In this document: positions 1,542 to 62,100 of the stretch, one piece after another
How positions within the stretch are numbered: the first letter of the stretch is position 1
How the letters are laid out: every line of letters starts with the position of its first letter
NCBI RefSeq assembly: GCF_057098645.1
Contig: NZ_CM169472.1
Length of the DNA stretch: 64,000 nucleotides
Reading direction: 5' to 3' (one strand)
Notes under the pieces: model-generated
The model's database searches: none
What the model saw: only the letters and a program-made list of their open reading frames with translations
What the model was told of the DNA's origin: nothing
Translations under genes and position numbers: made by a program

Positions 1542-3125
1542 ATGGAATGGATTGCCGATCCGTCTATCTGGGCCGGGTTAATCACGCTGATTGTGATCGA
1601 ACTGGTCCTCGGCATTGATAACCTGGTCTTTATTGCCATCCTCGCCGAAAAACTACCGCCGAAGCAGCGCGACCGCGCACGGGTTACCGGGCTGCTGCTG
1701 GCGATGTTAATGCGCCTGTTACTGCTGGCGTCAATCTCCTGGCTGGTCACCCTGACTCAACCGCTGTTCAGCTTCCGCTCGTTTACCTTTAGCGCCCGCG
1801 ACTTAATCATGCTGTTTGGTGGTTTCTTCCTGTTGTTCAAAGCCACGATGGAGCTGAACGAACGGCTGGAAGGGAAAGACAGCAATAATCCCACACAACG
1901 CAAAGGTGCGAAGTTCTGGGGCGTGGTGACGCAAATTGTGGTACTGGACGCCATTTTCTCACTCGACTCAGTGATTACCGCCGTCGGGATGGTCGACCAT
2001 TTACTGGTCATGATGGCCGCCGTGGTTATCGCTATCAGCCTGATGTTGATGGCCAGCAAGCCGTTAACGCAATTTGTTAACAGTCACCCGACGATCGTTA
2101 TTCTCTGCTTAAGCTTCCTGTTGATGATTGGCTTTAGCCTGGTGGCAGAAGGTTTCGGCTTCGTCATTCCGAAAGGCTACCTGTACGCTGCCATTGGTTT
2201 CTCGGTGATGATCGAGGCGCTCAATCAGTTGGCTATCTTTAACCGGCGACGTTTTCTTTCCGCTAACCAGACGCTGCGCCAGCGGACTACCGAAGCGGTA
2301 ATGCGCCTGCTTAGCGGGCAAAAAGAAGATGCGGAACTGGACGCCGAAACCGCGTCCATGCTGGTGGATCATGGTAACCAGCAGATCTTTAATCCGCAGG
2401 AACGGCGGATGATTGAGCGGGTACTAAATCTTAACCAGCGTACCGTCAGCAGCATTATGACGTCGCGCCACGATATTGAGCATATCGATCTCAACGCGCC
2501 GGAAGACGAGATCCGCCAGTTGCTGGAGCGAAATCAGCATACGCGGCTGGTGGTTACCGACGGTGATGACGCAGAAGATTTGCTCGGTGTTGTTCACGTT
2601 ATCGACCTGCTACAACAGTCTCTGCGCGGCGAACCGCTCAACCTGCGGGTGTTGATTCGCCAGCCGCTGGTGTTCCCGGAAACCTTGCCGTTGTTACCTG
2701 CCCTGGAGCAGTTCCGTAATGCCCGCACGCACTTTGCTTTTGTGGTGGATGAGTTTGGCTCGGTGGAAGGGATTGTGACATTAAGTGACGTCACTGAAAC
2801 CATTGCCGGTAACTTACCGAACGAAGTGGAAGAGATCGACGCCCGCCATGATATTCAGAAGAATGCGGACGGTTCCTGGACGGCGAATGGTCATATGCCG
2901 CTGGAGGATCTGGTGCAATATGTGCCGCTGCCGCTGGATGAAAAACGTGAATATCACACCATTGCCGGGCTGTTGATGGAGTATTTGCAGCGTATTCCAA
3001 AACCTGGCGAAGAAGTTCAGGTGGGGGATTATTTGCTTAAAACGTTGCAGGTAGAAAGCCATCGCGTGCAGAAGGTGCAGATTATACCGCTGCGTAAGGA
3101 TGGCGAGATGGAGTACGAGGTGTGA
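1542..3125 (+). CDS. yegH: Inner-membrane TerC-family protein with C-terminal CBS pair and CorC/HlyC transporter-associated domain
   Basis: ORF 1476..3125; likely true start at MEWIADPS (1542). N-terminal multi-TM region with the GIDNLVF TerC-type motif, then CBS-like and CorC-like C-terminus. Confidence 0.85.
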
Positions 3126-3360
3126 TGGTATCGGTCATTTTACCCGATGCTGCGTAACGCCTTATAACTTCAGCAATGAAGCGTTGTCTGTGGTACATGG
3201 ACATCACAGCGGGGGTGTGGGCCCGGGTTGCCAGGGTGGTGGCGATTGAGCCACCCTGGCACGTTCACCGGCTTGAGCGTTCCATAGTAACGAGGAACAT
3301 CAAGTGAACGGAACAGCCTTCGATCTTACATATTCAGAATATAATGATGCCGCCACGAAC

Positions 3361-3417: not shown

Positions 3418-5271
3418 CTACATCTTCTCAAGCAACTTCTTCACATCTTTGCCATTACGGGAATCTTTATTCCGCTCGGCCCAGTCATTCAGGCGACGTT
3501 TCGCTTCGTCCTGTAGATGTTTGCGCAGTAACTGATCCACTTGCAGGCTGTAATTGAGTTGCTGCCAGTTGCCATAAACCCGCAGCGGTACTGGCGTTTC
3601 TTTCAGGAAATCAATCAGTTTGCTTTCCCCGTTCCAGCCACCCACGACCCGAATATCAAACTGGGTGTCGCAGGTTTGATCTGCCAGATTCAACATGCCT
3701 TCCCCTGTCAGCGCCAGCACAGGCGATTGACCTTGCATGTCGTTTAACGTCACGACGCCATCCTTCAACGTCAAATCGGTGGTAAAGCGGTCAAGCCGCG
3801 TCACGTTATCAAAGTTTTCAGCGGCCTTCACATCACCGCCATTACGCTCTACCGCTTGCTGAATCATCTGCTGGAAGTTCATCCCTTCCATGCGCGTGTC
3901 GGTCATTTCGACATGTGCCTGTCCTTGCCAGTTGTGGCGGAATGCGTCGGCATCTATGTCAGCACCGGAGAAATCACCAGCCAGTGACATTTTTCCGGTC
4001 AACGAAATCGGATAGTTAAACGCCTTCAGAATGGTACCAATCTCAACGTTTTCCAGCCGTGGCTGGAAGTTTATCCGCGGATTTATTGATGTCGCGTCCA
4101 GCGTGCCCGGCAGTGAAACCTGTCCACCGTTAAGCTTGCCCTGCAGTTGAGTAATTTCCAGCAAACCCGACTTGTTGGTCATTTGCGTGGCAACATCTGT
4201 AAAATTCATTCCGCGCCAGCGCACGTTACTGACCTGCAACAAAATATCAGCCGTAAAGCCTTGCAGTCCCTGATAGGCCGGTTCATCAATACGCGAAGAA
4301 ATAACCGGGCGCGGCAACGTTGATTGGCTCTGCCCCTGCTGCGCGGCACCGTTTTCACCATTCGCTGTTTCATTAAGCGGGATGAGGTTGTCAAGATTCA
4401 GTTGCGGGAATTGCAGCCTCAGCTGCCATTCCGGTTTCTCTGTCAGCGTAACCTGTGCTTGCCCGCTCAGCGTACTGTCATTGGCGGTCAAGCTGATTTG
4501 GTTAAATGAAAGGCGTTTATGTGACTCCTGCCACTGGGCCTGGAAACTCCCCTGCCCCTGAATACCTTGTTTTGGTAAATCGGCACCCTGCAACTGCCAG
4601 TTAATTTGTTCAATAGCCGCCGTTAAATCATGCGGATAATCAGAAGCATCTACCGTACCGTTAAGGGATATCGTGAGATCGCGCTGATCGCGATTAACCC
4701 GCCCGGAAAACTCAAATGAGCCACGATGTTGGGGATCTTGTTCCATTTGCAGGCGGATATTGCGGATTGTCACCTGCTCGTCATCTTCATGCTGGAACAC
4801 CAGAACGCTGTCCGCCACCTTAAGACTGGATATATCAAACGACCATCCGCGATCGTCTGACAGATCCGGCAAGGTATTGTCGCGCGGTGCAACCGGAGCG
4901 TCTTCACTGCGCACCGCTTCCGTCTGCGGCGTCAGTTGGATCACTGCCCCTTTTAGCATCACCTGCTTAACGCTCAGTTGATGACTCAGTAGTGGTAAAA
5001 GCGCCACGTCCAGACGCATGTTGTCGGCGCGAACCAGTGGCTGGCTTGCGCCCTGGGCGGTGAGAGACATTCGCCCGGAGAGGATACTAAGCTGCGGCCA
5101 GACGTGCCAACGCAGTGGCCCGTCGAGCTGCAATTGATAACCGCTACGTGCAGCAACTTGCTTGACCATATAGTCGCGGAAATCATTCGGATTCACCAGC
5201 AACACTAACGCAGATAACCCGGCCACCAGCACGACCAGGAGTATCATCAGCGTCGTCAGAAATCGTCTCAT
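3418..5271 (-). CDS. asmA: AsmA, outer-membrane assembly protein (AsmA family)
   Basis: 617-aa ORF with N-terminal signal anchor (MRRFLTTLMILLVVLVAGLSALVLL), Gln-rich middle region, overall AsmA-like. Confidence 0.9.
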   Translation of the reverse strand: MRRFLTTLMILLVVLVAGLSALVLLVNPNDFRDYMVKQVAARSGYQLQLDGPLRWHVWPQLSILSGRMSLTAQGASQPLVRADNMRLDVALLPLLSHQLSVKQVMLKGAVIQLTPQTEAVRSEDAPVAPRDNTLPDLSDDRGWSFDISSLKVADSVLVFQHEDDEQVTIRNIRLQMEQDPQHRGSFEFSGRVNRDQRDLTISLNGTVDASDYPHDLTAAIEQINWQLQGADLPKQGIQGQGSFQAQWQESHKRLSFNQISLTANDSTLSGQAQVTLTEKPEWQLRLQFPQLNLDNLIPLNETANGENGAAQQGQSQSTLPRPVISSRIDEPAYQGLQGFTADILLQVSNVRWRGMNFTDVATQMTNKSGLLEITQLQGKLNGGQVSLPGTLDATSINPRINFQPRLENVEIGTILKAFNYPISLTGKMSLAGDFSGADIDADAFRHNWQGQAHVEMTDTRMEGMNFQQMIQQAVERNGGDVKAAENFDNVTRLDRFTTDLTLKDGVVTLNDMQGQSPVLALTGEGMLNLADQTCDTQFDIRVVGGWNGESKLIDFLKETPVPLRVYGNWQQLNYSLQVDQLLRKHLQDEAKRRLNDWAERNKDSRNGKDVKKLLEKM

Positions 5272-16044: not shown

Positions 16045-16227
16045 AAGAAATCCTTTCTTAGAGAATTATTGAGGTCCGGTATCATACCGATTGCAATAAT
16101 GAAATAAGAGCAAACGAAGAAACTTTCAGAATTAGGCCCGGCGGCGCAGAAAATTTTGCTATTCGCCTCGCAAGAACGGAGAGCCGTCGATTGACACTAA
16201 GGGCGGAGTGACATAATTACAGGAGTG

Positions 16228-16375
16228 AGGGTTAGGGAGAAGTTTCCCCCTCCCCCTGGTGTTCTTAGTAAGCCTGGAAGCTAATCACTAAGAGTATCAC
16301 CAGTATGATGACGTGCTTCATCATAACCCTTTCCTTATTTAAAAGCCCTCTTCTCCGGGAGAGGGTTCCCCGTTT
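16228..16375 (+). ncRNA. sibA: Sib antitoxin sRNA, copy 1 (boundaries approximate)
   Basis: Starts just downstream of TTGACA...TAATTA; fully antisense to ibs ORF 1; ends at hairpin ccctcttctccgggagaggg plus T-run. Confidence 0.55.
16265..16324 (-). CDS. ibsA: Ibs-type hydrophobic toxin peptide, copy 1 (MMKHVIILVILLVISFQAY)
   Basis: 19-codon ORF with tandem ATG start and strongly hydrophobic sequence typical of Ibs toxins. Confidence 0.6.
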   Translation of the reverse strand: MMKHVIILVILLVISFQAY

Positions 16376-16556
16376 TAGCGTCCCGCTGAAATCGTCGGCT
16401 TACCTCCTTTCGCCCTGAATGCAGTCTATCGCTGACTTGCGGATAAAATAGTTTCAAGTGTGATTATTGCGTAACGACTCGCAAAGAATATTTGCTGGCA
16501 GGATCGCAGACTGCAAAGCCTGCAGATTGACAATCTTATCGTGAAGGCATACTTTC

Positions 16557-16703
16557 AGGAGTGAGGGTAGAGCGGGGTTTCCCCCGCCCTGGTAGTCTTA
16601 GTAAGCGGGGAAGCTTATGACTAAGAGCACCACGATGATGAGTAGCTTCATCATGACCCTTTCCTTATTTAAGGCCCCTTCCTCGGGAGGGGCTTTCCCG
16701 TTT
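16557..16703 (+). ncRNA. sibB: Sib antitoxin sRNA, copy 2 (boundaries approximate)
   Basis: Promoter TTGACA-N17-TACTTT; antisense to ibs ORF 2; terminator hairpin plus T-run. Confidence 0.55.
16598..16654 (-). CDS. ibsB: Ibs-type toxin peptide, copy 2 (MMKLLIIVVLLVISFPAY)
   Basis: 18-codon hydrophobic ORF antisense to Sib copy 2. Confidence 0.6.
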   Translation of the reverse strand: MMKLLIIVVLLVISFPAY

Positions 16704-16884
16704 CAGCGTCCCGCTGAAATCTTCGGCTTACCTCCTTTCGCCCTGTATGCAGTCTATCGCTGACTTGCGGATAAAATAGTTTCAAGTGTGATTATTGCGT
16801 AACGACTCGCAAAGAATATTTGCTGGCAGGATCGCAGACTGCAAAGCCTGCAGATTGACAATCTTATCGTGAAGGCATACTTTC

Positions 16885-17031
16885 AGGAGTGAGGGTAGAG
16901 CGGGGTTTCCCCCGCCCTGGTAGTCTTAGTATGCTGGGTAGCTAATCACTAAGAGCACCACGATGATGAGTATCTTCATCATGACCCTTTCCTTATTTAT
17001 GGCCCCTTCCTCGGGAGGGGCTTTCCCGTTT
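16885..17031 (+). ncRNA. Sib antitoxin sRNA, copy 3 (boundaries approximate)
   Basis: Third repeat of the promoter/sRNA/terminator block. Confidence 0.5.
16926..16982 (-). CDS. Ibs-type toxin peptide, copy 3 (MMKILIIVVLLVISYPAY)
   Basis: 18-codon hydrophobic ORF in the third repeat; two residue differences from copy 2. Confidence 0.55.
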   Translation of the reverse strand: MMKILIIVVLLVISYPAY

Positions 17032-21630: not shown

Positions 21631-24600
21631 GTGAAGTTTTTTGCCCTCTTCATTTACCGTCCGGTGGCGACGATTTTACTGTCGGTTGCCATTACCCTGT
21701 GCGGCATACTGGGCTTCCGTATGCTGCCGGTCGCCCCGCTGCCGCAGGTCGATTTTCCGGTGATTATGGTCAGCGCCTCGCTGCCCGGTGCGTCACCAGA
21801 AACAATGGCGTCTTCCGTTGCCACGCCGCTGGAGCGCTCACTTGGGCGCATTGCCGGAGTCAGTGAAATGACCTCCAGCAGTTCGCTCGGCAGCACGCGT
21901 ATTATTTTGCAGTTTGATTTTGACCGGGATATCAACGGCGCAGCGCGTGATGTGCAGGCGGCGATCAACGCTGCACAAAGTTTGCTGCCCAGTGGGATGC
22001 CCAGCCGCCCGACCTATCGCAAAGCGAACCCGTCGGATGCGCCAATTATGATCCTCACGCTGACGTCCGATACTTATTCGCAGGGTGAACTGTACGATTT
22101 CGCCTCGACGCAGCTGGCTCCGACGATTTCGCAAATCGACGGTGTTGGTGATGTCGATGTCGGAGGCAGCTCACTGCCCGCCGTACGCGTCGGGCTGAAT
22201 CCGCAGGCGCTGTTTAATCAGGGCGTGTCGCTGGACGACGTACGCACCGCCGTCAGCAATGCCAACGTGCGTAAACCGCAGGGCGCGCTGGAAGATGGCA
22301 CTCACCGCTGGCAGATCCAGACCAATGATGAGCTAAAAACCGCCGCTGAATATCAGCCGTTGATTATTCATTACAACAACGGCGGCGCGGTTCGTCTGGG
22401 CGATGTGGCGACGGTGACCGACTCAGTGCAGGATGTGCGCAACGCCGGGATGACCAACGCCAAACCGGCTATTTTACTGATGATCCGCAAACTGCCGGAA
22501 GCCAATATTATCCAGACGGTTGACAGCATCCGGGCAAAATTACCGGAGTTGCAGGAAACCATTCCGGCGGCGATTGATCTGCAAATTGCCCAGGATCGCT
22601 CCCCCACCATTCGCGCCTCGCTGGAAGAAGTCGAGCAAACGCTGATTATCTCGGTGGCGCTGGTGATTCTGGTGGTGTTTTTATTCCTGCGCTCGGGTCG
22701 CGCCACTATTATTCCCGCCGTTTCGGTGCCGGTTTCGCTGATTGGTACGTTTGCGGCGATGTACCTGTGCGGATTCAGTCTCAATAACCTTTCGTTAATG
22801 GCGCTCACCATCGCTACTGGTTTCGTGGTGGATGACGCCATCGTGGTGCTGGAAAACATTGCACGTCATCTGGAAGCGGGAATGAAACCGTTGCAAGCCG
22901 CACTGCAAGGTACTCGCGAAGTCGGTTTTACGGTGCTGTCGATGAGTCTGTCACTGGTGGCGGTGTTCCTGCCGCTGCTGTTGATGGGCGGATTGCCGGG
23001 CCGACTGTTACGCGAGTTTGCCGTGACGCTTTCTGTCGCCATTGGTATTTCGTTGCTGGTTTCTCTGACATTAACGCCAATGATGTGTGGCTGGATGCTG
23101 AAAGCCAGCAAGCCGCGCGAGCAAAAGCGACTGCGTGGTTTTGGTCGCATGTTGGTAGCCCTGCAACAAGGCTACGGCAAGTCACTGAAATGGGTGCTCA
23201 ATCATACCCGTCTGGTGGGCGTGGTGCTGCTTGGCACCATTGCGCTGAATATCTGGCTGTATATCTCGATCCCGAAAACCTTCTTCCCGGAGCAGGACAC
23301 TGGCGTGTTGATGGGCGGGATTCAGGCGGATCAGAGTATTTCGTTTCAGGCGATGCGCGGTAAGTTGCAGGATTTCATGAAAATTATCCGTGACGATCCG
23401 GCAGTGGATAATGTCACCGGCTTTACAGGCGGTTCGCGAGTGAACAGCGGGATGATGTTTATCACCCTCAAGCCACGCGACGAACGCAGCGAAACGGCGC
23501 AGCAAATTATCGACCGTCTGCGCGTAAAACTGGCGAAAGAACCGGGGGCGAATCTGTTCCTGATGGCGGTACAGGATATTCGCGTTGGTGGGCGTCAGTC
23601 GAACGCCAGCTACCAGTACACGTTGTTATCCGACGACCTGGCGGCACTGCGCGAATGGGAGCCGAAAATCCGCAAAAAACTGGCGACGTTGCCGGAACTG
23701 GCGGACGTGAACTCCGATCAGCAGGATAACGGCGCGGAGATGAATCTGGTTTACGACCGTGACACCATGGCACGGCTGGGAATCGACGTACAAGCCGCCA
23801 ACAGTCTGTTAAATAACGCCTTCGGTCAGCGGCAAATCTCGACCATTTACCAGCCGATGAACCAGTATAAAGTGGTGATGGAAGTGGATCCGCGCTATAC
23901 CCAGGACATCAGTGCGCTGGAAAAAATGTTCGTTATCAATAACGAAGGCAAAGCGATCCCGCTGTCGTATTTCGCTAAATGGCAACCGGCGAATGCCCCA
24001 CTATCGGTGAATCATCAGGGATTATCGGCGGCCTCGACCATTTCGTTCAACCTGCCGACCGGAAAATCGCTCTCGGACGCCAGTGCGGCGATCGATCGCG
24101 CAATGACCCAGCTTGGTGTGCCTTCGACGGTGCGCGGCAGTTTTGCCGGAACAGCGCAGGTGTTCCAGGAGACGATGAACTCACAGGTGATCCTGATTAT
24201 CGCCGCCATCGCCACGGTGTATATCGTGCTGGGTATCCTTTACGAGAGTTATGTGCACCCGCTGACGATTCTCTCCACCCTGCCCTCGGCGGGTGTTGGA
24301 GCGCTGCTGGCGCTGGAGCTGTTCAATGCCCCGTTCAGCCTAATCGCCCTGATAGGGATCATGCTATTAATCGGCATCGTGAAGAAAAACGCCATTATGA
24401 TGGTCGATTTTGCGCTTGAAGCCCAACGGCACGGTAACCTGACGCCGCAGGAAGCTATTTTCCAGGCCTGTCTGCTGCGTTTTCGCCCGATTATGATGAC
24501 TACCCTGGCGGCGCTGTTTGGCGCGCTGCCGCTGGTGTTGTCGGGCGGCGACGGCTCGGAGCTGCGGCAACCCCTGGGGATCACCATTGTCGGCGGACTG

Positions 24601-28912: not shown

Positions 28913-30274
28913 ATGTTTAAACCGGAACTCCTTTCCCCGGCGGGAACGCTGAAAAATATGCGTTACGCTTTCGCTTATGGCGCAGATGCTGTTTATGCGG
29001 GCCAGCCGCGTTACTCCCTGCGTGTGCGCAACAACGAATTCAACCACGAAAATCTTCAGCTCGGCATCAATGAAGCCCACGCGCTGGGGAAAAAGTTTTA
29101 TGTCGTGGTCAACATTGCACCGCACAACGCCAAGCTGAAAACCTTTATCCGTGACCTGAAACCGGTGGTGGAAATGGGGCCGGATGCGCTGATTATGTCC
29201 GATCCAGGGCTGATTATGCTGGTGCGTGAGCACTTCCCTGAAATGCCGATCCACCTCTCGGTGCAGGCTAACGCCGTAAACTGGGCGACGGTGAAATTCT
29301 GGCAGCAAATGGGCCTGACCCGCGTGATCCTCTCTCGCGAGCTGTCGCTGGAAGAGATTGAAGAGATCCGCAATCAGGTGCCGGATATGGAGATCGAGAT
29401 CTTCGTTCACGGCGCACTGTGCATGGCCTACTCCGGTCGCTGCCTGCTCTCTGGCTATATCAACAAGCGCGATCCGAACCAGGGTACCTGCACCAACGCC
29501 TGCCGCTGGGAGTACAACGTCCAGGAAGGGAAAGAAGATGACGTTGGCAACATCGTACACAAGTACGAGCCGATTCCGGTGCAAAATGTTGAGCCGACGC
29601 TGGGTATCGGCGCGCCAACCGACAAAGTGTTTATGATCGAAGAAGCCCAGCGTCCGGGCGAGTATATGACCGCGTTTGAAGATGAGCACGGCACTTACAT
29701 CATGAACTCGAAAGATCTGCGCGCCATCGCCCATGTAGAACGCCTGACCAAAATGGGCGTGCATTCGCTGAAAATCGAAGGCCGTACTAAATCTTTCTAC
29801 TATTGCGCACGCACCGCACAGGTTTACCGTAAAGCTATCGATGACGCCGCTGCGGGCAAACCGTTCGATACCAGCCTGCTGGAAACTCTGGAAGGTCTGG
29901 CGCATCGTGGCTATACCGAAGGTTTCCTGCGTCGTCATACTCACGACGATTATCAGAACTACGAATACGGTTATTCAGTTTCTGACCGCCAGCAGTTTGT
30001 TGGTGAGTTTACCGGTGAGCGCAAGGGGGACCTCGCGGCGGTAGCGGTGAAAAATAAATTCTCCGTTGGCGACAGCCTTGAGCTGATGACGCCGCAAGGC
30101 AACATTAACTTTACCCTTGAGCACATGGAAAACGCCAAAGGTGAAGCGATGCCGGTCGCACCAGGCGATGGTTATACTGTGTGGCTCCCGGTCCCGCAGG
30201 ATCTTGAGCTCAATTACGCTCTGCTGATGCGTAATTTCTCCGGGGAAACCACGCGTAACCCACACGGTAAGTGA
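28913..30274 (+). CDS. trhP: U32-family peptidase-like enzyme (tRNA hydroxylation TrhP/YegQ)
   Basis: 453-aa ORF MFKPELLSPAGTLKNMRYAFAYGADAVYAGQPRY..., U32 family with conserved Cys cluster. Confidence 0.85.
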   Translation: MFKPELLSPAGTLKNMRYAFAYGADAVYAGQPRYSLRVRNNEFNHENLQLGINEAHALGKKFYVVVNIAPHNAKLKTFIRDLKPVVEMGPDALIMSDPGLIMLVREHFPEMPIHLSVQANAVNWATVKFWQQMGLTRVILSRELSLEEIEEIRNQVPDMEIEIFVHGALCMAYSGRCLLSGYINKRDPNQGTCTNACRWEYNVQEGKEDDVGNIVHKYEPIPVQNVEPTLGIGAPTDKVFMIEEAQRPGEYMTAFEDEHGTYIMNSKDLRAIAHVERLTKMGVHSLKIEGRTKSFYYCARTAQVYRKAIDDAAAGKPFDTSLLETLEGLAHRGYTEGFLRRHTHDDYQNYEYGYSVSDRQQFVGEFTGERKGDLAAVAVKNKFSVGDSLELMTPQGNINFTLEHMENAKGEAMPVAPGDGYTVWLPVPQDLELNYALLMRNFSGETTRNPHGK

Positions 30275-30358
30275 TTAATTTCGATTATTTTTCCCGGATG
30301 GAAAATTCTTAGAAACCGATCACATACAGCTGCATTTATTAAGGTTATCATCCGTTTC

Positions 30359-30445
30359 GCTGAAAAACATAACCCATAAAATGCTAGCTGTACCAGGAAC
30401 CACCTCCTTAGCCTGTGTAATCTCCCTTACACGGGCTTATTTTTT
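30359..30445 (+). ncRNA. cyaR: CyaR (RyeE) Hfq-dependent sRNA
   Basis: gctgaaaaacataacccataaaatgctagctgtaccaggaaccacctccttagcctgtgtaatctcccttacacgggcttattttttt: CCUCCU anti-SD seed, then terminator hairpin gcctgtgtaa/ttacacgggc plus U-tract; CRP half-site-like TCACA upstream. Confidence 0.75.
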
Positions 30446-30604
30446 TATGCATAAGCCCTATCTCTGGTAACCGTCTTCCATTGACCACATCGATAGAATC
30501 CTCCTTCATAGCACGATGCCTTTCACTTATCGGCATCGTGCTCCCACAGGTTCCGGCTACGCACAGCCAGAACGCGCATATTTGACGCTTACCAAAAAAT
30601 ATTC

Positions 30605-30922
30605 TCACTCTCCACATTTGAATGTCAGACGAGCGACACCATGTAATCCTACACCTTCTGTCTTCAGCTCAACTATTTGCATTTTTTTGCCCTGAGTAAC
30701 ACAGAAATGAGTTGCATCATTTTTTACTATATTTTCTGCACCAGATATTCTACCCCTGGCTAAAGAAGCTTCGGCTTCGGTGTAGTATTGGTTATCGAGT
30801 TTACGCTGAATATTACTTTTATATGCAAGACCAAATTTACCGATACTTGTCTCATCATTATGCACAGCACAACCAGACATAATAAAAATACTAATTAATG
30901 ATATAGCAGCTATCTTTTTCAT
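30605..30922 (-). CDS. yegR: Small lipoprotein of unknown function
   Basis: ORF 30605..30982; likely start MKKIAAISLISIFIMSGC (30922), 105 aa; signal peptide plus lipobox Cys; AT-rich codon usage. Confidence 0.7.
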   Translation of the reverse strand: MKKIAAISLISIFIMSGCAVHNDETSIGKFGLAYKSNIQRKLDNQYYTEAEASLARGRISGAENIVKNDATHFCVTQGKKMQIVELKTEGVGLHGVARLTFKCGE

Positions 30923-31327
30923 CTCACCTTCCCCCATTAAATACCAACGACACTCTCTAGTGTTTAAATATAATAATGGCATGATTATTATAATTGAATA
31001 GGATTATAATAAATGTTCTGTACAACATTTCCTACATAAGTAGGAATTACGGACATTGAGGCCCTTCAGGGTAACTCCATGGGGGCTTTAATATATTATA
31101 TTGAAGATGCCACTGTTTAGTTGAATATTAGGTATATGCTCTTTTTTGAAATTTATCGGTGGCAGCCGTTAGTATTCGCTGTCCCCATTGCAAGCTCCTG
31201 GTGGTAACCACTGAATCCTCCATACTTGAACTGACTTTTTATCCTCCGACTTTCATCCTGTTCTGACTCCACCTTTTGTTTTCTGCTCTACACTATCTAC
31301 AGACCAATCATAAAGGCACATACGATC

Positions 31328-32227
31328 ATGGCAGAATTTCCCGCCAGCTTACTGATTCTTAATGGCAAAAGTACTGACAATTTACCCTTGCGCGAAGCAA
31401 TTATGCTGTTGCGTGAGGAAGGAATGACGATCCATGTGCGGGTCACCTGGGAGAAAGGCGATGCCGCACGATATGTAGAGGAGGCCCGGAAGTTGGGCGT
31501 CGCAACGGTGATTGCTGGTGGTGGCGATGGCACCATTAATGAAGTTTCTACGGCGTTGATTCAGTGTGAGGGGGATGACATACCCGCGCTGGGAATTTTG
31601 CTATTAGGAACCGCCAATGATTTTGCCACCAGTGTAGGGATTCCTGAGGCACTGGATAAGGCGCTGAAACTGGCAATTGCCGGTGACGCCATTGCGATAG
31701 ATATGGCGCAGGTCAACAAACAAACCTGTTTTATTAATATGGCGACAGGCGGATTTGGGACGCGTATTACCACAGAAACGCCGGAAAAATTAAAAGCCGC
31801 GCTGGGTAGCGTCTCTTACATCATTCATGGCTTAATGCGTATGGATACTCTGCAACCGGACCGTTGTGAAATCCGCGGTGAAAACTTTCACTGGCAAGGT
31901 GACGCCCTGGTCATTGGTATTGGTAACGGGCGTCAGGCCGGTGGCGGTCAGCAATTGTGTCCGAACGCGTTAATTAACGATGGCTTGCTGCAACTGCGCA
32001 TTTTTACCGGCGATGAAATACTTCCGGCTCTCGTATCAACCTTAAAATCTGACGAAGATAACCCGAATATTATCGAAGGCGCTTCGTCGTGGTTTGATAT
32101 TCAGGCACCACACGACATCACCTTTAATCTTGATGGCGAACCGTTGAGTGGGCAAAATTTTCATATTGAAATACTTCCGGCAGCGTTGCGTTGTCGATTA
32201 CCACCAGATTGTCCACTGTTGCGTTAA
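31328..32227 (+). CDS. yegS: Lipid kinase YegS (DAGK_cat family)
   Basis: 299-aa ORF with diacylglycerol-kinase catalytic-domain motif ([13 protein letters not shown]). Confidence 0.85.
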
Positions 32228-32308: not shown

Positions 32309-33088
32309 CTACACCGTAATTAATTTTACCCGCGTCTTCTGCAATGCCAGTTTATCCACCTCTGACACAGCATCATCGGTAATAATAATGTCAATTTTTT
32401 CGATTGGTAGTACCTGATTAAAACCGCGACGGTTAAATTTCGATGAATCGAGAACGGCAATCACTTTATTAGCGGCTGTGACCATCGCACCGCTAATAGA
32501 ATAACCTTCATTAAAGGTCGTAATACCATTAACCGCATCAATACCATCAGCACCGACAAACATTAAATCGGCATTAATATCCTGTAATGAACGCTCGGCA
32601 ATGGAACCATGCATCGAGCGCGTTTTATGGCGGACCGTGCCACCACAGACGACCAGAGTAATGTCTTTATTTTCGGAAAGGGCAAACGCTGCCGGGAGAC
32701 TGTTGGTAATCACCGTGATATTTTTGGCGGTCATTAATCCTTCGGCGATAAGCATTGTCGTACTTCCGCTGTCGAGAATAACGGTCATCCCTTCGTGGAT
32801 CATTTTGACTGCCGCCTGCGCTATTCTGTTTTTTGGCGCGCTGGCGAGCTGAAATCGCTCTTTAAACCCGACTTCCTGGGTCTCGGTTTCACTATTACCA
32901 GACATTATTTTCGCCGCACCGCCATGAAAGCGCGTAACCACGCCTTTTTGTTCGAGAAAGCGCAAATCGGCACGGATTGTCGCTTCCGAGGCAGCAAATA
33001 CTCCCGCCAGATCCTGAACAAGCACGGTTCCCTGTTCATTCACTAATTGGATGATCTTATTCCTTCGCTCGAATGAATTCATCGTCAT
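32309..33088 (-). CDS. gatR: DeoR-family galactitol operon repressor GatR, apparently intact
   Basis: 259-aa uninterrupted ORF with N-terminal HTH and C-terminal DeoR sugar-binding domain. Confidence 0.85.
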   Translation of the reverse strand: MTMNSFERRNKIIQLVNEQGTVLVQDLAGVFAASEATIRADLRFLEQKGVVTRFHGGAAKIMSGNSETETQEVGFKERFQLASAPKNRIAQAAVKMIHEGMTVILDSGSTTMLIAEGLMTAKNITVITNSLPAAFALSENKDITLVVCGGTVRHKTRSMHGSIAERSLQDINADLMFVGADGIDAVNGITTFNEGYSISGAMVTAANKVIAVLDSSKFNRRGFNQVLPIEKIDIIITDDAVSEVDKLALQKTRVKLITV

Positions 33089-59162: not shown

Positions 59163-62100
59163 ATGAGACACTTTATCTATCAGGACGAAAAATCACATAA
59201 ATTCAGGGCAGTTGAGCAACAGGGAAACGAGTTGCATATCAGTTGGGGAAAAGTTGGCACCAAAGGGCAAAGCCAGATAAAAAGTTTTTCAGATGCTGCG
59301 GCAGCGGCAAAAGCGGAGCTTAAGCTGATTGCGGAGAAGGTGAAGAAGGGGTATGTGGAGCAAGCGAAGGATAATTCTTTGCAACCTTCCCAAACGGTAA
59401 CGGGCTCTCTCAAGGTAGCGGACTTATCCACCATTATTCAGGAACAACCCTCTTTCGTAGCAGAAACCCGTGCGCCTGACAAAAATACAGATGCTGTTTT
59501 ACCGTGGCTGGCGAAAGATATTGCTGTCGTTTTTCCGCCCGAAGTTGTACACACCACGTTAAGTCATCGCCGCTTTCCCGGAGTTCCTGTTCAGCAAGCA
59601 GACAAATTGCCCCAATTACGTCGCTTAGCCTGTAGTGTGTCGCAACGGGATAATAAAACAGCCACATTTGACTTCAGCGCCTGTTCTTTAGAATGGCAAA
59701 ACACCGTCGCCCAGGCGATCAGTCAGATCGACGGCCTGAAAACAACACAGTTACCATCACCAGTAATGGCTGTACTCACGGCACTTGAAATGAAATGCAC
59801 AAGATATAAAGTGCGTGAGGATGTTATGGATCAGATCGTCCAGGAAGGCGGTCTGGAATATGCTACTGATGTAATAATACACCTTCAACAGATTGATATT
59901 GAATGGGATTATGCGAATAATGTCATTATTATTCTGCCGTCTGGCATTGCACCTAGCTACTTGGAGCAATATTCCAGATTTGAATGACGCCTACGTAAAC
60001 ATTTATCACTGACGGAAGAGTCTCTCTGGCAAAAATGTGCACAAAAACTTATTGCCGCAATTTCACATATTCCAGAATGGCGGCAACCATTAATTGCTTT
60101 GTTATTACCCGAAAAACCAGAAATTGCACATGAAATTGCCCAGCGTCTACTGGGGCAAAAAAAATTACCCTCGCTTGAGTGGTTAAAAATAGTGGCGACT
60201 GATGAGCACATTCTTGCCTCATTAGAAAAATATCACGAACCATATGCCATTTTTGATGATTACTATTGTGGTGCGATATGGTCAGCCACCGTATTACAGG
60301 AGCAAGGTGTTGCAGCCCTGCCCCGATTTGCTCCCTATGCCGCAAGTGACTACTGCGCCGATGTGTTGCGTCATATCAATCATCCGTTCGCATTGACACT
60401 GCTTATACGTGTAGCCGGGCAAACTAAACGCTGTCACGATCGGATGACGAAAGCCATTGCTGCGTTCCCACATGCAGCAATGGCGGCACTGACGGAACTT
60501 CTTGGGCAAAAAGAAGAGAACAGTTGGCGCATTATGCTAATGACAATGCTTATCTCACAACCAGCACTGGCAGAACAGGTCATTCCCTGGCTCTCGACAC
60601 CCGCAGTTGCCGTACTGAAATCATGCCAGCAACAACTGACACAGCCCTCAAACCATGCCAGCGCCGATCTACTGCCAGCCGTAGTAGTCTCCCCTCCCTG
60701 GCTTTCGAAAAAGAAAAAATCGCCGATTCCGGTGCTGGATTTAGCGCCATTAGGCATTGAGCCAATCTGTTATCTGACAGAAGAAATCAGTAATCAACTT
60801 TTGGCGAAATATATCTGGTATTCAAAACACATCACGGTTAGCCATGAAGAAAGTACTACCAACCTGTTGGCAAGGATGGGTTTTCAACGACGGATCGCTG
60901 GTACATATATTAAAGCTCCCGAAGCGGTAGTTGAGGCATGGCTAAATGAAGATTATTCAACCTTACTAAGTGAATTTAAGGTGTTTCATTCACCTACCGG
61001 GCATTATTGGCAGTTGGGGATTTTGACAACATTGCCGCTGGAGAAAGCAGTAAAAGCATGGAATGCCCTTACCCTATCTCCACATACCGATACCGAATAC
61101 TCCATGTTACATTTTGGACTCAAAGGGTTACCTGGGTTAGTAAACTCACTTGCACGCTATCCACAAGAAGCCTTGCCCATCACGAATTACTTCGCAGCGA
61201 GTGAGCTGGCTCCTGCCGTCGCCCGTGCCTTCAACAAACTGAAAACGCTACGCGAAAACGCCCGTAGCTGGCTGTTGAAATACCCGGAACATGCCCTTAC
61301 CGGCCTGCTGCCTGCGGCGCTCGGCAAAGCCGGTGAAGCACAGGATAACGCCCGCGCTGCCTTGCGTATGCTTACCGAAAACGGTCATCAGCCATTACTG
61401 CAAGAAATCGCCCGACGTTATAACCAGCCGGAAGTAACCGATGCGGTGAACGCTCTGCTTGCGCTCGATCCCTTAGATAATCACCCGACAAAAATCCCCA
61501 CTCTTCCGGCCTTTTATCAGCCATCGCTCTGGACGCGCCCGGTATTAAAAGCAAATGCCCAATCACTGCCAGATAGCGCCCTCCTCCACCTCGGTGAAAT
61601 GCTCCGCTTCCCTCAGGAAGAGGCTCTGTATCCGGGATTATTGCAGGTGAAAGACGTCTGTTCCGCCGACTCACTGGCGGGATTTGCCTGGGATCTGTTT
61701 ACCGCCTGGCAGACCGCTGGCGCGCCGTCGAAAGAGAGTTGGGCGTTCACTGCGTTAGGCGTTCTCGGTAACGATGACACCGCCCGCAAACTGACGCCAT
61801 TAATACGCGCCTGGCCTGGTGAATCCCAGCATAAACGCGCCACCGTTGGGTTGGATATTCTCGCTGCTATCGGTAGTGATATCGCCCTTATGCAGCTTAA
61901 CGGCATCGCCCAGAAACTGAAATTCAAAGCATTACAGGAGCGGGCAAAAGAAAAAATTGCCGACATTGCCGAGAGCCGCGAACTCACGGTGGCGGAGCTT
62001 GAAGATCGGTTAGCACCGGATCTCGGTCTGGATGATAACGGTTCGCTGCTGCTGGATTTTGGCCCACGGCAGTTCACCGTCAGCTTTGATGAAACCTTAA

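Follow-up and report, generated by a model that had tools for sequence, protein, structure and literature searches.

The window analysed here is a 64,000-nt stretch of contig NZ_CM169472.1 (NCBI RefSeq assembly GCF_057098645.1), read on one strand from 5′ to 3′. The list of open reading frames (ORFs) places the stop of yegQ, also named trhP, at 30274 and the start of yegS at 31328. The interval between them (30275–31327) holds the small RNA gene cyaR, the gene yegR and several short non-coding features (Table 1), and E. coli strain 203740 is 100% identical across a 1201-bp stretch containing it. The G+C content of the interval is 39.0%, compared with 50.9% for the window, 54.3% for yegQ and 49.4% for yegS; yegR itself has 36.5%, and the gap between yegR and yegS 38.0%. 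An earlier inspection of the letters alone (hereafter the sequence-only reading) had described an interval AT-rich relative to its flanks, carrying an AT-rich lipoprotein gene. Both descriptions hold, the lipoprotein-type signal being judged by eye.

Table 1. Features of the yegQ–yegS interval and its two flanking genes, in window coordinates.
Feature	Position	Strand	Basis
yegQ (trhP), left flank gene	28913–30274	+	453-aa ORF; RefSeq name in matching genomes
cyaR (ryeE) small RNA gene, including intrinsic terminator and T-run	30357–30445	+	Rfam RF00112; terminator scan
Probable empty phage P2 attB, 27-bp core overlapping the cyaR terminator	30419–30445		27/27 to P2 attP
P2-type P arm relic (Int arm-binding footprint)	30459–30493		Alignment to PR-X and P2 P arm
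Perfect palindrome, 11-bp arms and 11-nt loop	30510–30542		Inverted-repeat scan
Second predicted hairpin, between palindrome and yegR	30546–30577	−	Minimum free energy and consensus folds
yegR, 105-aa protein, putative lipoprotein-type signal	30605–30922	−	ORF; RefSeq 'protein YegR'
Divergent yegR–yegS intergenic region, AT-rich (38% G+C)	30923–31327		Composition, promoter and repeat scans
yegS (lipid kinase), right flank gene	31328–32227	+	299-aa ORF; RefSeq name

The mechanical ORF of yegR extends to 30982, and the RefSeq coding sequence comprises 318 nt. The N-terminus of the protein, MKKIAAISLISIFIMSGC, was compared by eye with the PROSITE lipobox pattern; we take it to fit a lipoprotein signal and YegR to be a putative lipoprotein. 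A local Pfam scan of YegR gave no match, and precomputed hits name the family PF27694. Homologues come almost exclusively from E. coli and Shigella. The relatives at 46–50% identity sit in unrelated contexts, one of them among IS elements in an Enterobacter genome. Given this distribution and the AT-rich composition, yegR and the DNA surrounding it look like a horizontally acquired, Escherichia-restricted gene. The divergent region between yegR and yegS carries promoter-like sites on both strands as well as several AT-only inverted repeats.

Two further loci of the window may be recorded here. Downstream of yegS, a DeoR-family gene (gatR, 32309–33088) forms an intact ORF of 259 aa; in K-12 this gene is, we assume, interrupted by an IS element. 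At 16191–16997, three tandem copies of SIB RNA (Sib antitoxin) score 141–145 bits, where K-12 presumably has two copies, sibA and sibB, at the matching locus.

The CyaR match is full-length (30357–30442, + strand) and scores 100.7 bits against a gathering score of 47. A terminator-like stem at 30410–30437 is followed by a T-run, and in K-12 the CyaR 3′ end listed in the Term-seq sheets of Adams et al. (2021; PMC7815308) lies at 2167199, the end of that T-run. The last 27 bp of this terminator region are identical at 27 of 27 positions to nucleotides 24356–24382 of phage P2 (AF063097), which are annotated as attP and Int core site. The core occurs only once in the window. Its identity to the P2 attP core marks the interval as a probable empty P2 attachment site, and lysogens of other genomes bear this out. 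In the lysogenic strain IH5, P2-type cox, C and int genes are followed by the core and then by sequence corresponding to the window from 30418 onward. In four more sampled genomes an integrase gene ends just before the core. P2-like prophages in other genomes sit exactly at the core, with int at one junction and ogr at the other. A scan of IMG/VR proviruses by the exact palindrome pattern described below returned 78 loci, of which 74 could be oriented; in 71 of these 74, the palindrome is on the far side of a core lacking cyaR in front of it, which is the int-side junction. On one 48-kb provirus contig, IMGVR_UViG_2565956724_000008 (loci L071 and L072), the exact palindrome is found twice, which suggests tandem prophages or a duplicated flank at the site.

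Taken together, these comparisons indicate that the interval is very probably (we estimate a probability of about 0.85) the common unoccupied state of the E. coli cyaR–yegR–yegS locus, in which the terminator of cyaR doubles as the attB site of P2-group phages. The suggestion of the sequence-only reading that an integration site might lie here is thereby sustained, although at the 27-bp core rather than at the palindrome. P2 integrase would recombine within the 27-bp core, so that a lysogen would carry the core on both sides and retain the cyaR terminator, in the order cyaR–core–[P arm, ogr, D ... int]–core–flank. A P2 site at the cyaR terminator is already known biology, and ryeE, which is cyaR, has been recognised as a phage target (PMC3603311). 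This part of the analysis confirms a textbook arrangement, the terminator of a small RNA gene serving as a phage attachment site, and matters little beyond that.

The state of the site was surveyed in 5426 complete E. coli genomes with a 131-bp probe running from cyaR across the core into the flank. An uninterrupted junction, that is an empty site, was present in 4206 of the 5426 (~78%), and the K-12-type junction between a truncated gene D and a partial core (D′/partial core) in 358; subtraction leaves about 860 matching genomes with a split junction. Six split junctions were examined: a P2-type integrase gene adjoins in five, and the sixth, in strain ETEC4088, is a decayed prophage. The compact form that the sequence-only reading had singled out is therefore the norm in E. 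coli and K-12 the exception. It follows as a caution that the K-12 reference is atypical at the cyaR–yegR locus in carrying a decayed prophage. In ETEC4088 (NZ_CP122629.1), a truncated P2-like prophage with a baseplate V gene and a virion morphogenesis pseudogene adjoins the sequence at window position 30554; the deletion has taken the core, the arm relic and the palindrome and left yegR intact.

In MG1655 (NC_000913.3), the 'cryptic prophage PR-X' is annotated at 2167183–2167811 (629 bp) between cyaR and yegR, with ogrK and the pseudogene yegZ, in agreement with the sequence-only reading. PR-X has been described as a short prophage segment found in K-12 strains only (PMC5811629). Alignment of forms with and without the remnant placed the attachment site at the cyaR terminator, away from the palindrome. 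In the K-12-type strain 4A, window segments 30200–30445 and 30428–31400 are both present with 611 bp between them; this insert is made up of the P arm, ogrK and the 3′ portion of gene D, and the core is duplicated over 18 bp. K-12 thus differs from the window by a 629-bp insertion (611 bp plus the 18-bp partial core repeat) and retains all host DNA. The junction, at which ...GAGAACTCTGC meets TACACGGGCTTATTTTTTT, suggests that PR-X is the product of an internal deletion in a prophage, with one end in gene D and the other in the second copy of the core. Searches by blastn and tblastn found no ogrK or gene D sequence anywhere in the window. The distance from the core to the yegR stop is only 159 bp, and cyaR is indeed followed directly by yegR. 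In the supplementary file 2 of Adams et al. (PMC7815308), an 'orphan' Rho-dependent termination region (Rho score 3.19, p = 1.2e-6) is listed on the + strand of MG1655 at 2167873, corresponding approximately to window position 30489. As far as this file goes, the entry points to + strand transcripts that cross PR-X in K-12 and are antisense to ogrK and yegZ.

The sequence-only reading had also stated that no prophage remnant is present. This is correct for genes, and incorrect for the flank, where a 35-bp stretch derives from a P2-type arm. This stretch (Table 1) aligns with the P arm of PR-X and P2 at 83% identity over 36 aligned positions; the local alignment score of 38 compares with 13.7 ± 2.2 for shuffled sequences and was reached in 0 of 5000 shuffles. 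The matched P2 segment is annotated as the Int P-arm site, an arm-binding footprint. One TGTGGTC repeat is intact on the − strand, the other is degenerate, and the IHF segment is deleted. By sequence comparison, the stretch is a real and old prophage scar, a decayed P2-type integrase arm site embedded in what passes for host flank. Since the flank itself contains a decayed P2-type arm, it would represent a second scar, separate from that of K-12; in K-12, the newer scar PR-X adjoins the older arm relic. We found no earlier description of an arm relic in the distal flank in the literature searched.

A divergent Escherichia (L022; NZ_JAATUR010000014.1, 2819–3212) carries cyaR and the core followed by a spacer of 394 bp, compared with 159 bp in the window. 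What survives of a P2-type P arm in its flank is the IHF part (score 43, reached by 0 of 5000 shuffles), and a different sequence stands in place of the palindrome. As the window and L022 keep different parts of the P arm, prophages have apparently decayed at this site more than once. Intact lysogens, PR-X and the arm relic together show the erosion of prophages at one locus down to tens of bases. If the conserved arm relic beside the core still acted, new lysogens would have an int-side junction similar to a complete attP, which would influence how P2 integrates at, or excises from, its preferred site.

Between the arm relic and yegR lies the perfect inverted repeat AGCACGATGCC-N11-GGCATCGTGCT, with arms at 30510–30520 and 30532–30542, exactly as the sequence-only reading had given it. 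It is situated 64 bp from the attachment core and, on the − strand, 62 nt downstream of the yegR stop. The sequence that follows it reads CCCACAGG on the + strand and ATGAAGGAGG on the − strand, with no U-tract on either. The terminator scan returned the cyaR terminator only and did not report the palindrome. The window contains three perfect 11-bp stems with loops of 3–20 nt, where composition-preserving shuffles average 0.27, which signifies that the palindrome is non-random, yet not unique. A second palindrome with the same 11/11/11 geometry, TGCCAGGGTGG-N11-CCACCCTGGCA, is found at 3229–3261, likewise perfect and lacking a U-tract; it occupies the gap between two convergent ORFs, one of 549 aa that ends at 3125 (+ strand) and one of 617 aa that ends at 3418 (− strand). 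The third perfect 11-bp stem (60453–60484) is inside a 952-aa ORF.

The sequence-only reading had called for a search for the palindrome elsewhere in the genome. In 5417 of the 5426 genomes, the 159-bp spacer around it is single-copy (median 1, maximum 2 places), the window contains no further copy of the palindrome at up to 2 mismatches, and no Rfam family matched it. The empty, K-12-remnant and lysogen forms of the site all carry the palindrome unaltered. A search of phage collections matched the 27-bp core only, apart from records that include host flank, and a phage origin of the palindrome is not supported; four P2-group phages that have the core carry a P2-type terminator instead, as do P2 and PR-X. 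Membership in a yegR cassette was rejected: the palindrome is absent downstream of the yegR relatives in other contexts (loci L024 and L006), and the relative at L006 has a canonical terminator. Just past the yegR stop, a 169-bp, single-copy, AT-rich block is present between window positions 30600 and 30601 in 948 of the 5426 genomes (positions 701–869 of locus L003), among them that of the type strain ATCC 11775. It puts extra distance between yegR and the palindrome, and the window does not have it. A longer version of the block in L022 makes a deletion the probable origin of the short form.

The palindrome is a single-copy host-flank sequence specific to the E. coli lineage. It is dispensable or not linked to yegR, being absent near the relatives of yegR and in L022, deleted in ETEC4088 and separated from yegR in 948 genomes. 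We found no earlier characterisation of it in the literature searched.

Asking what the palindrome might do, for which the sequence-only reading had offered a protein-binding site or an RNA stability element, we folded it as RNA and followed its variation. Taken by itself on the − strand, it has a folding energy of −24.1 kcal/mol (z −5.5). For the 165-nt stretch that follows yegR, the energy is −64.1 kcal/mol (z −5.3) on the − strand and −44.3 kcal/mol (z −4.8) on the + strand, so that z is similar for the two. In the second predicted hairpin (30546–30577), a U-G pair on the − strand corresponds to a C·A mismatch on the + strand. In an unbiased sample of ten E. coli variants, the stems showed no excess of conservation, 3 of 22 stem positions being variable compared with 22 of 133 other spacer positions (Fisher p = 1). 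None of the sampled E. coli variants differs in the 9 bp at the centre of either arm, and the loop is variable at 3 of its 11 positions. None of 44 predicted pairs showed a compensatory change among 20 distinct E. coli variants, whose low diversity gives this comparison little power. Three of the four variant stem cells still form G-U pairs on the − strand, a number that is not significant.

We tentatively favour a reading in which the palindrome forms a stable RNA hairpin where the convergent transcription units of yegR (− strand) and cyaR (+ strand) meet. Such a hairpin might block 3′ exonucleases, or aid the termination of transcripts continuing beyond yegR (or beyond cyaR or, in lysogens, int), and could stop transcripts that would otherwise extend antisense into the neighbouring gene. 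The folding energies, which rest on structure prediction, are consistent with this, as are the variants that preserve G-U pairing and the U-G pair on the − strand of the neighbouring hairpin. The palindrome at 3229–3261 lies in a convergent gap as well and would fit a class of convergent-gap hairpins. In K-12, the Rho-dependent region, which is coarsely mapped, peaks in the listed data about 20 nt before the palindrome on the + strand (PMC7815308). Against the hairpin stand the similar z of the two strands, the lack of compensatory pairs and stems that vary as much as the spacer around them. Between positions 2167199 and 2171800 of MG1655, the two Term-seq sheets of Adams et al. (2021; PMC7815308) contain no 3′ end, and the 169-bp block intervenes between yegR and the palindrome in the 948 genomes noted above. 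The absence of the palindrome near yegR relatives and in L022, and its loss from ETEC4088 with yegR kept, also speak against the hairpin. A conventional intrinsic terminator was rejected: the stem, with 11 bp and seven G-C pairs, suits one, but the loop of 11 nt exceeds the usual 3–8 nt and the U-tract is missing. The palindrome would matter only if it controlled the stability of the yegR or cyaR transcript.

Nearly as likely, though still doubtful, is that the palindrome has no present function and was inherited as neutral sequence with the end of an older P2-like prophage, at the position that the ogr/F-operon terminator takes in P2. The arm relic ends at 30493 and the palindrome begins 16 nt later; in P2, a terminator hairpin lies 6 nt after the arm sites, and that hairpin is the bidirectional terminator of ogr and the F operon, just beyond the arm. 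Stems with neither excess conservation nor covariation speak for such an origin. It also accords with L022, which has no palindrome and a flank with a different portion of the P arm, with the deletion in ETEC4088 that left yegR in place, and with the lack of a reported 3′ end at the palindrome in the Term-seq sheets cited. Nothing similar, however, occurs in the sequenced P2-group phages that have the core, all of which possess the P2-type terminator, and all IMG/VR copies with classifiable flanks lie beyond the int-side core and not on the ogr side. The stem is moreover perfect in most sampled lineages, which would be unexpected after long neutrality, although E. coli diversity is too low for this to serve as a test.

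The hairpin reading could be extended to the whole 150-bp spacer between the core and yegR. It is improbable, to our minds, that this spacer is a functional structured RNA of the − strand, or that the arm relic influences P2 integration or excision. If the spacer were such an RNA, the palindrome, the second hairpin and a closing stem would form a stability element of the yegR 3′-UTR or a small RNA derived from it. Two small ORFs on the − strand past the palindrome, one of 10 codons behind an AAGGAGG Shine-Dalgarno motif and one of 34 codons running antisense through the att core, were set aside because the motif and the peptide change between lineages and the longer ORF would be broken in lysogens.

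We consider it similarly unlikely that the palindrome is a DNA operator, with two 11-bp half-sites on the same helix face to which a dimeric protein regulating yegR, cyaR or phage recombination would bind. Its perfect dyad symmetry and the invariant centres of the arms around a variable loop would suit such a site. It lies, however, downstream of both convergent genes, with no promoter nearby; an 11-bp spacer between 11-bp half-sites is unusual among known operators; neither the window, searched at up to 2 mismatches, nor E. coli genomes hold a second copy; and the stems vary as much as the neighbouring DNA.

There is very little to recommend the palindrome itself as the scar of integrase attachment or excision, an origin that the sequence-only reading had offered and that is suggested by its proximity to the att core at a locus with repeated prophage traffic. 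All junctions examined, be they of the K-12 remnant, lysogens or proviruses, fall at the 27-bp core; the palindrome does not differ between empty, remnant and lysogen forms and is thus not an excision scar. Its 11-nt spacer is also longer than the 6–8-bp core overlap regions of tyrosine recombinases. Least probable of all is a REP/BIME element, another dispersed repeat or the end of a small mobile element: a GC-rich intergenic hairpin 3′ of a gene, in a spacer bracketed by imperfect inverted repeats (30456–30470 and 30586–30601), would look the part, but the spacer is single-copy and so not REP, no other copy was found in the window and no match in Rfam, and the left bracketing repeat belongs to the P-arm relic. 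Compared by eye, the palindrome is also unlike the REP consensus. Whatever probability these explanations leave falls to a palindrome that arose by chance and has no function. The hairpin at the convergence of yegR and cyaR, tentative as it is, remains the reading that we favour.

Compared with known systems, the palindrome resembles REP/BIME elements in being an intergenic palindrome 3′ of a gene and differs from them in being single-copy and of unrelated sequence. With intrinsic terminators and the 3′ stabilising stem-loops of convergent gene pairs, it shares a stable, GC-containing hairpin between convergent units; unlike them, it has no U-tract, a loop of 11 nt and no mapped 3′ end in the data cited. 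The K-12 remnant PR-X occupies the same locus and the same core, and the host sequence of the window, including the palindrome and yegR, is present in K-12 too; the window differs in having neither ogrK nor the gene D fragment between cyaR and yegR. The closest counterpart is the preferred attachment site of P2. This site of E. coli C was reportedly named locI by Barreiro and Haggard-Ljungquist in 1992, who are also said to have described the K-12 remnant, and we take it to be the site at the 3′ end of cyaR/ryeE. The two share the 27-bp core, the overlap with the terminator and the adjoining int gene in lysogens. Nothing essential differs between them, and the copy in the window is simply empty.
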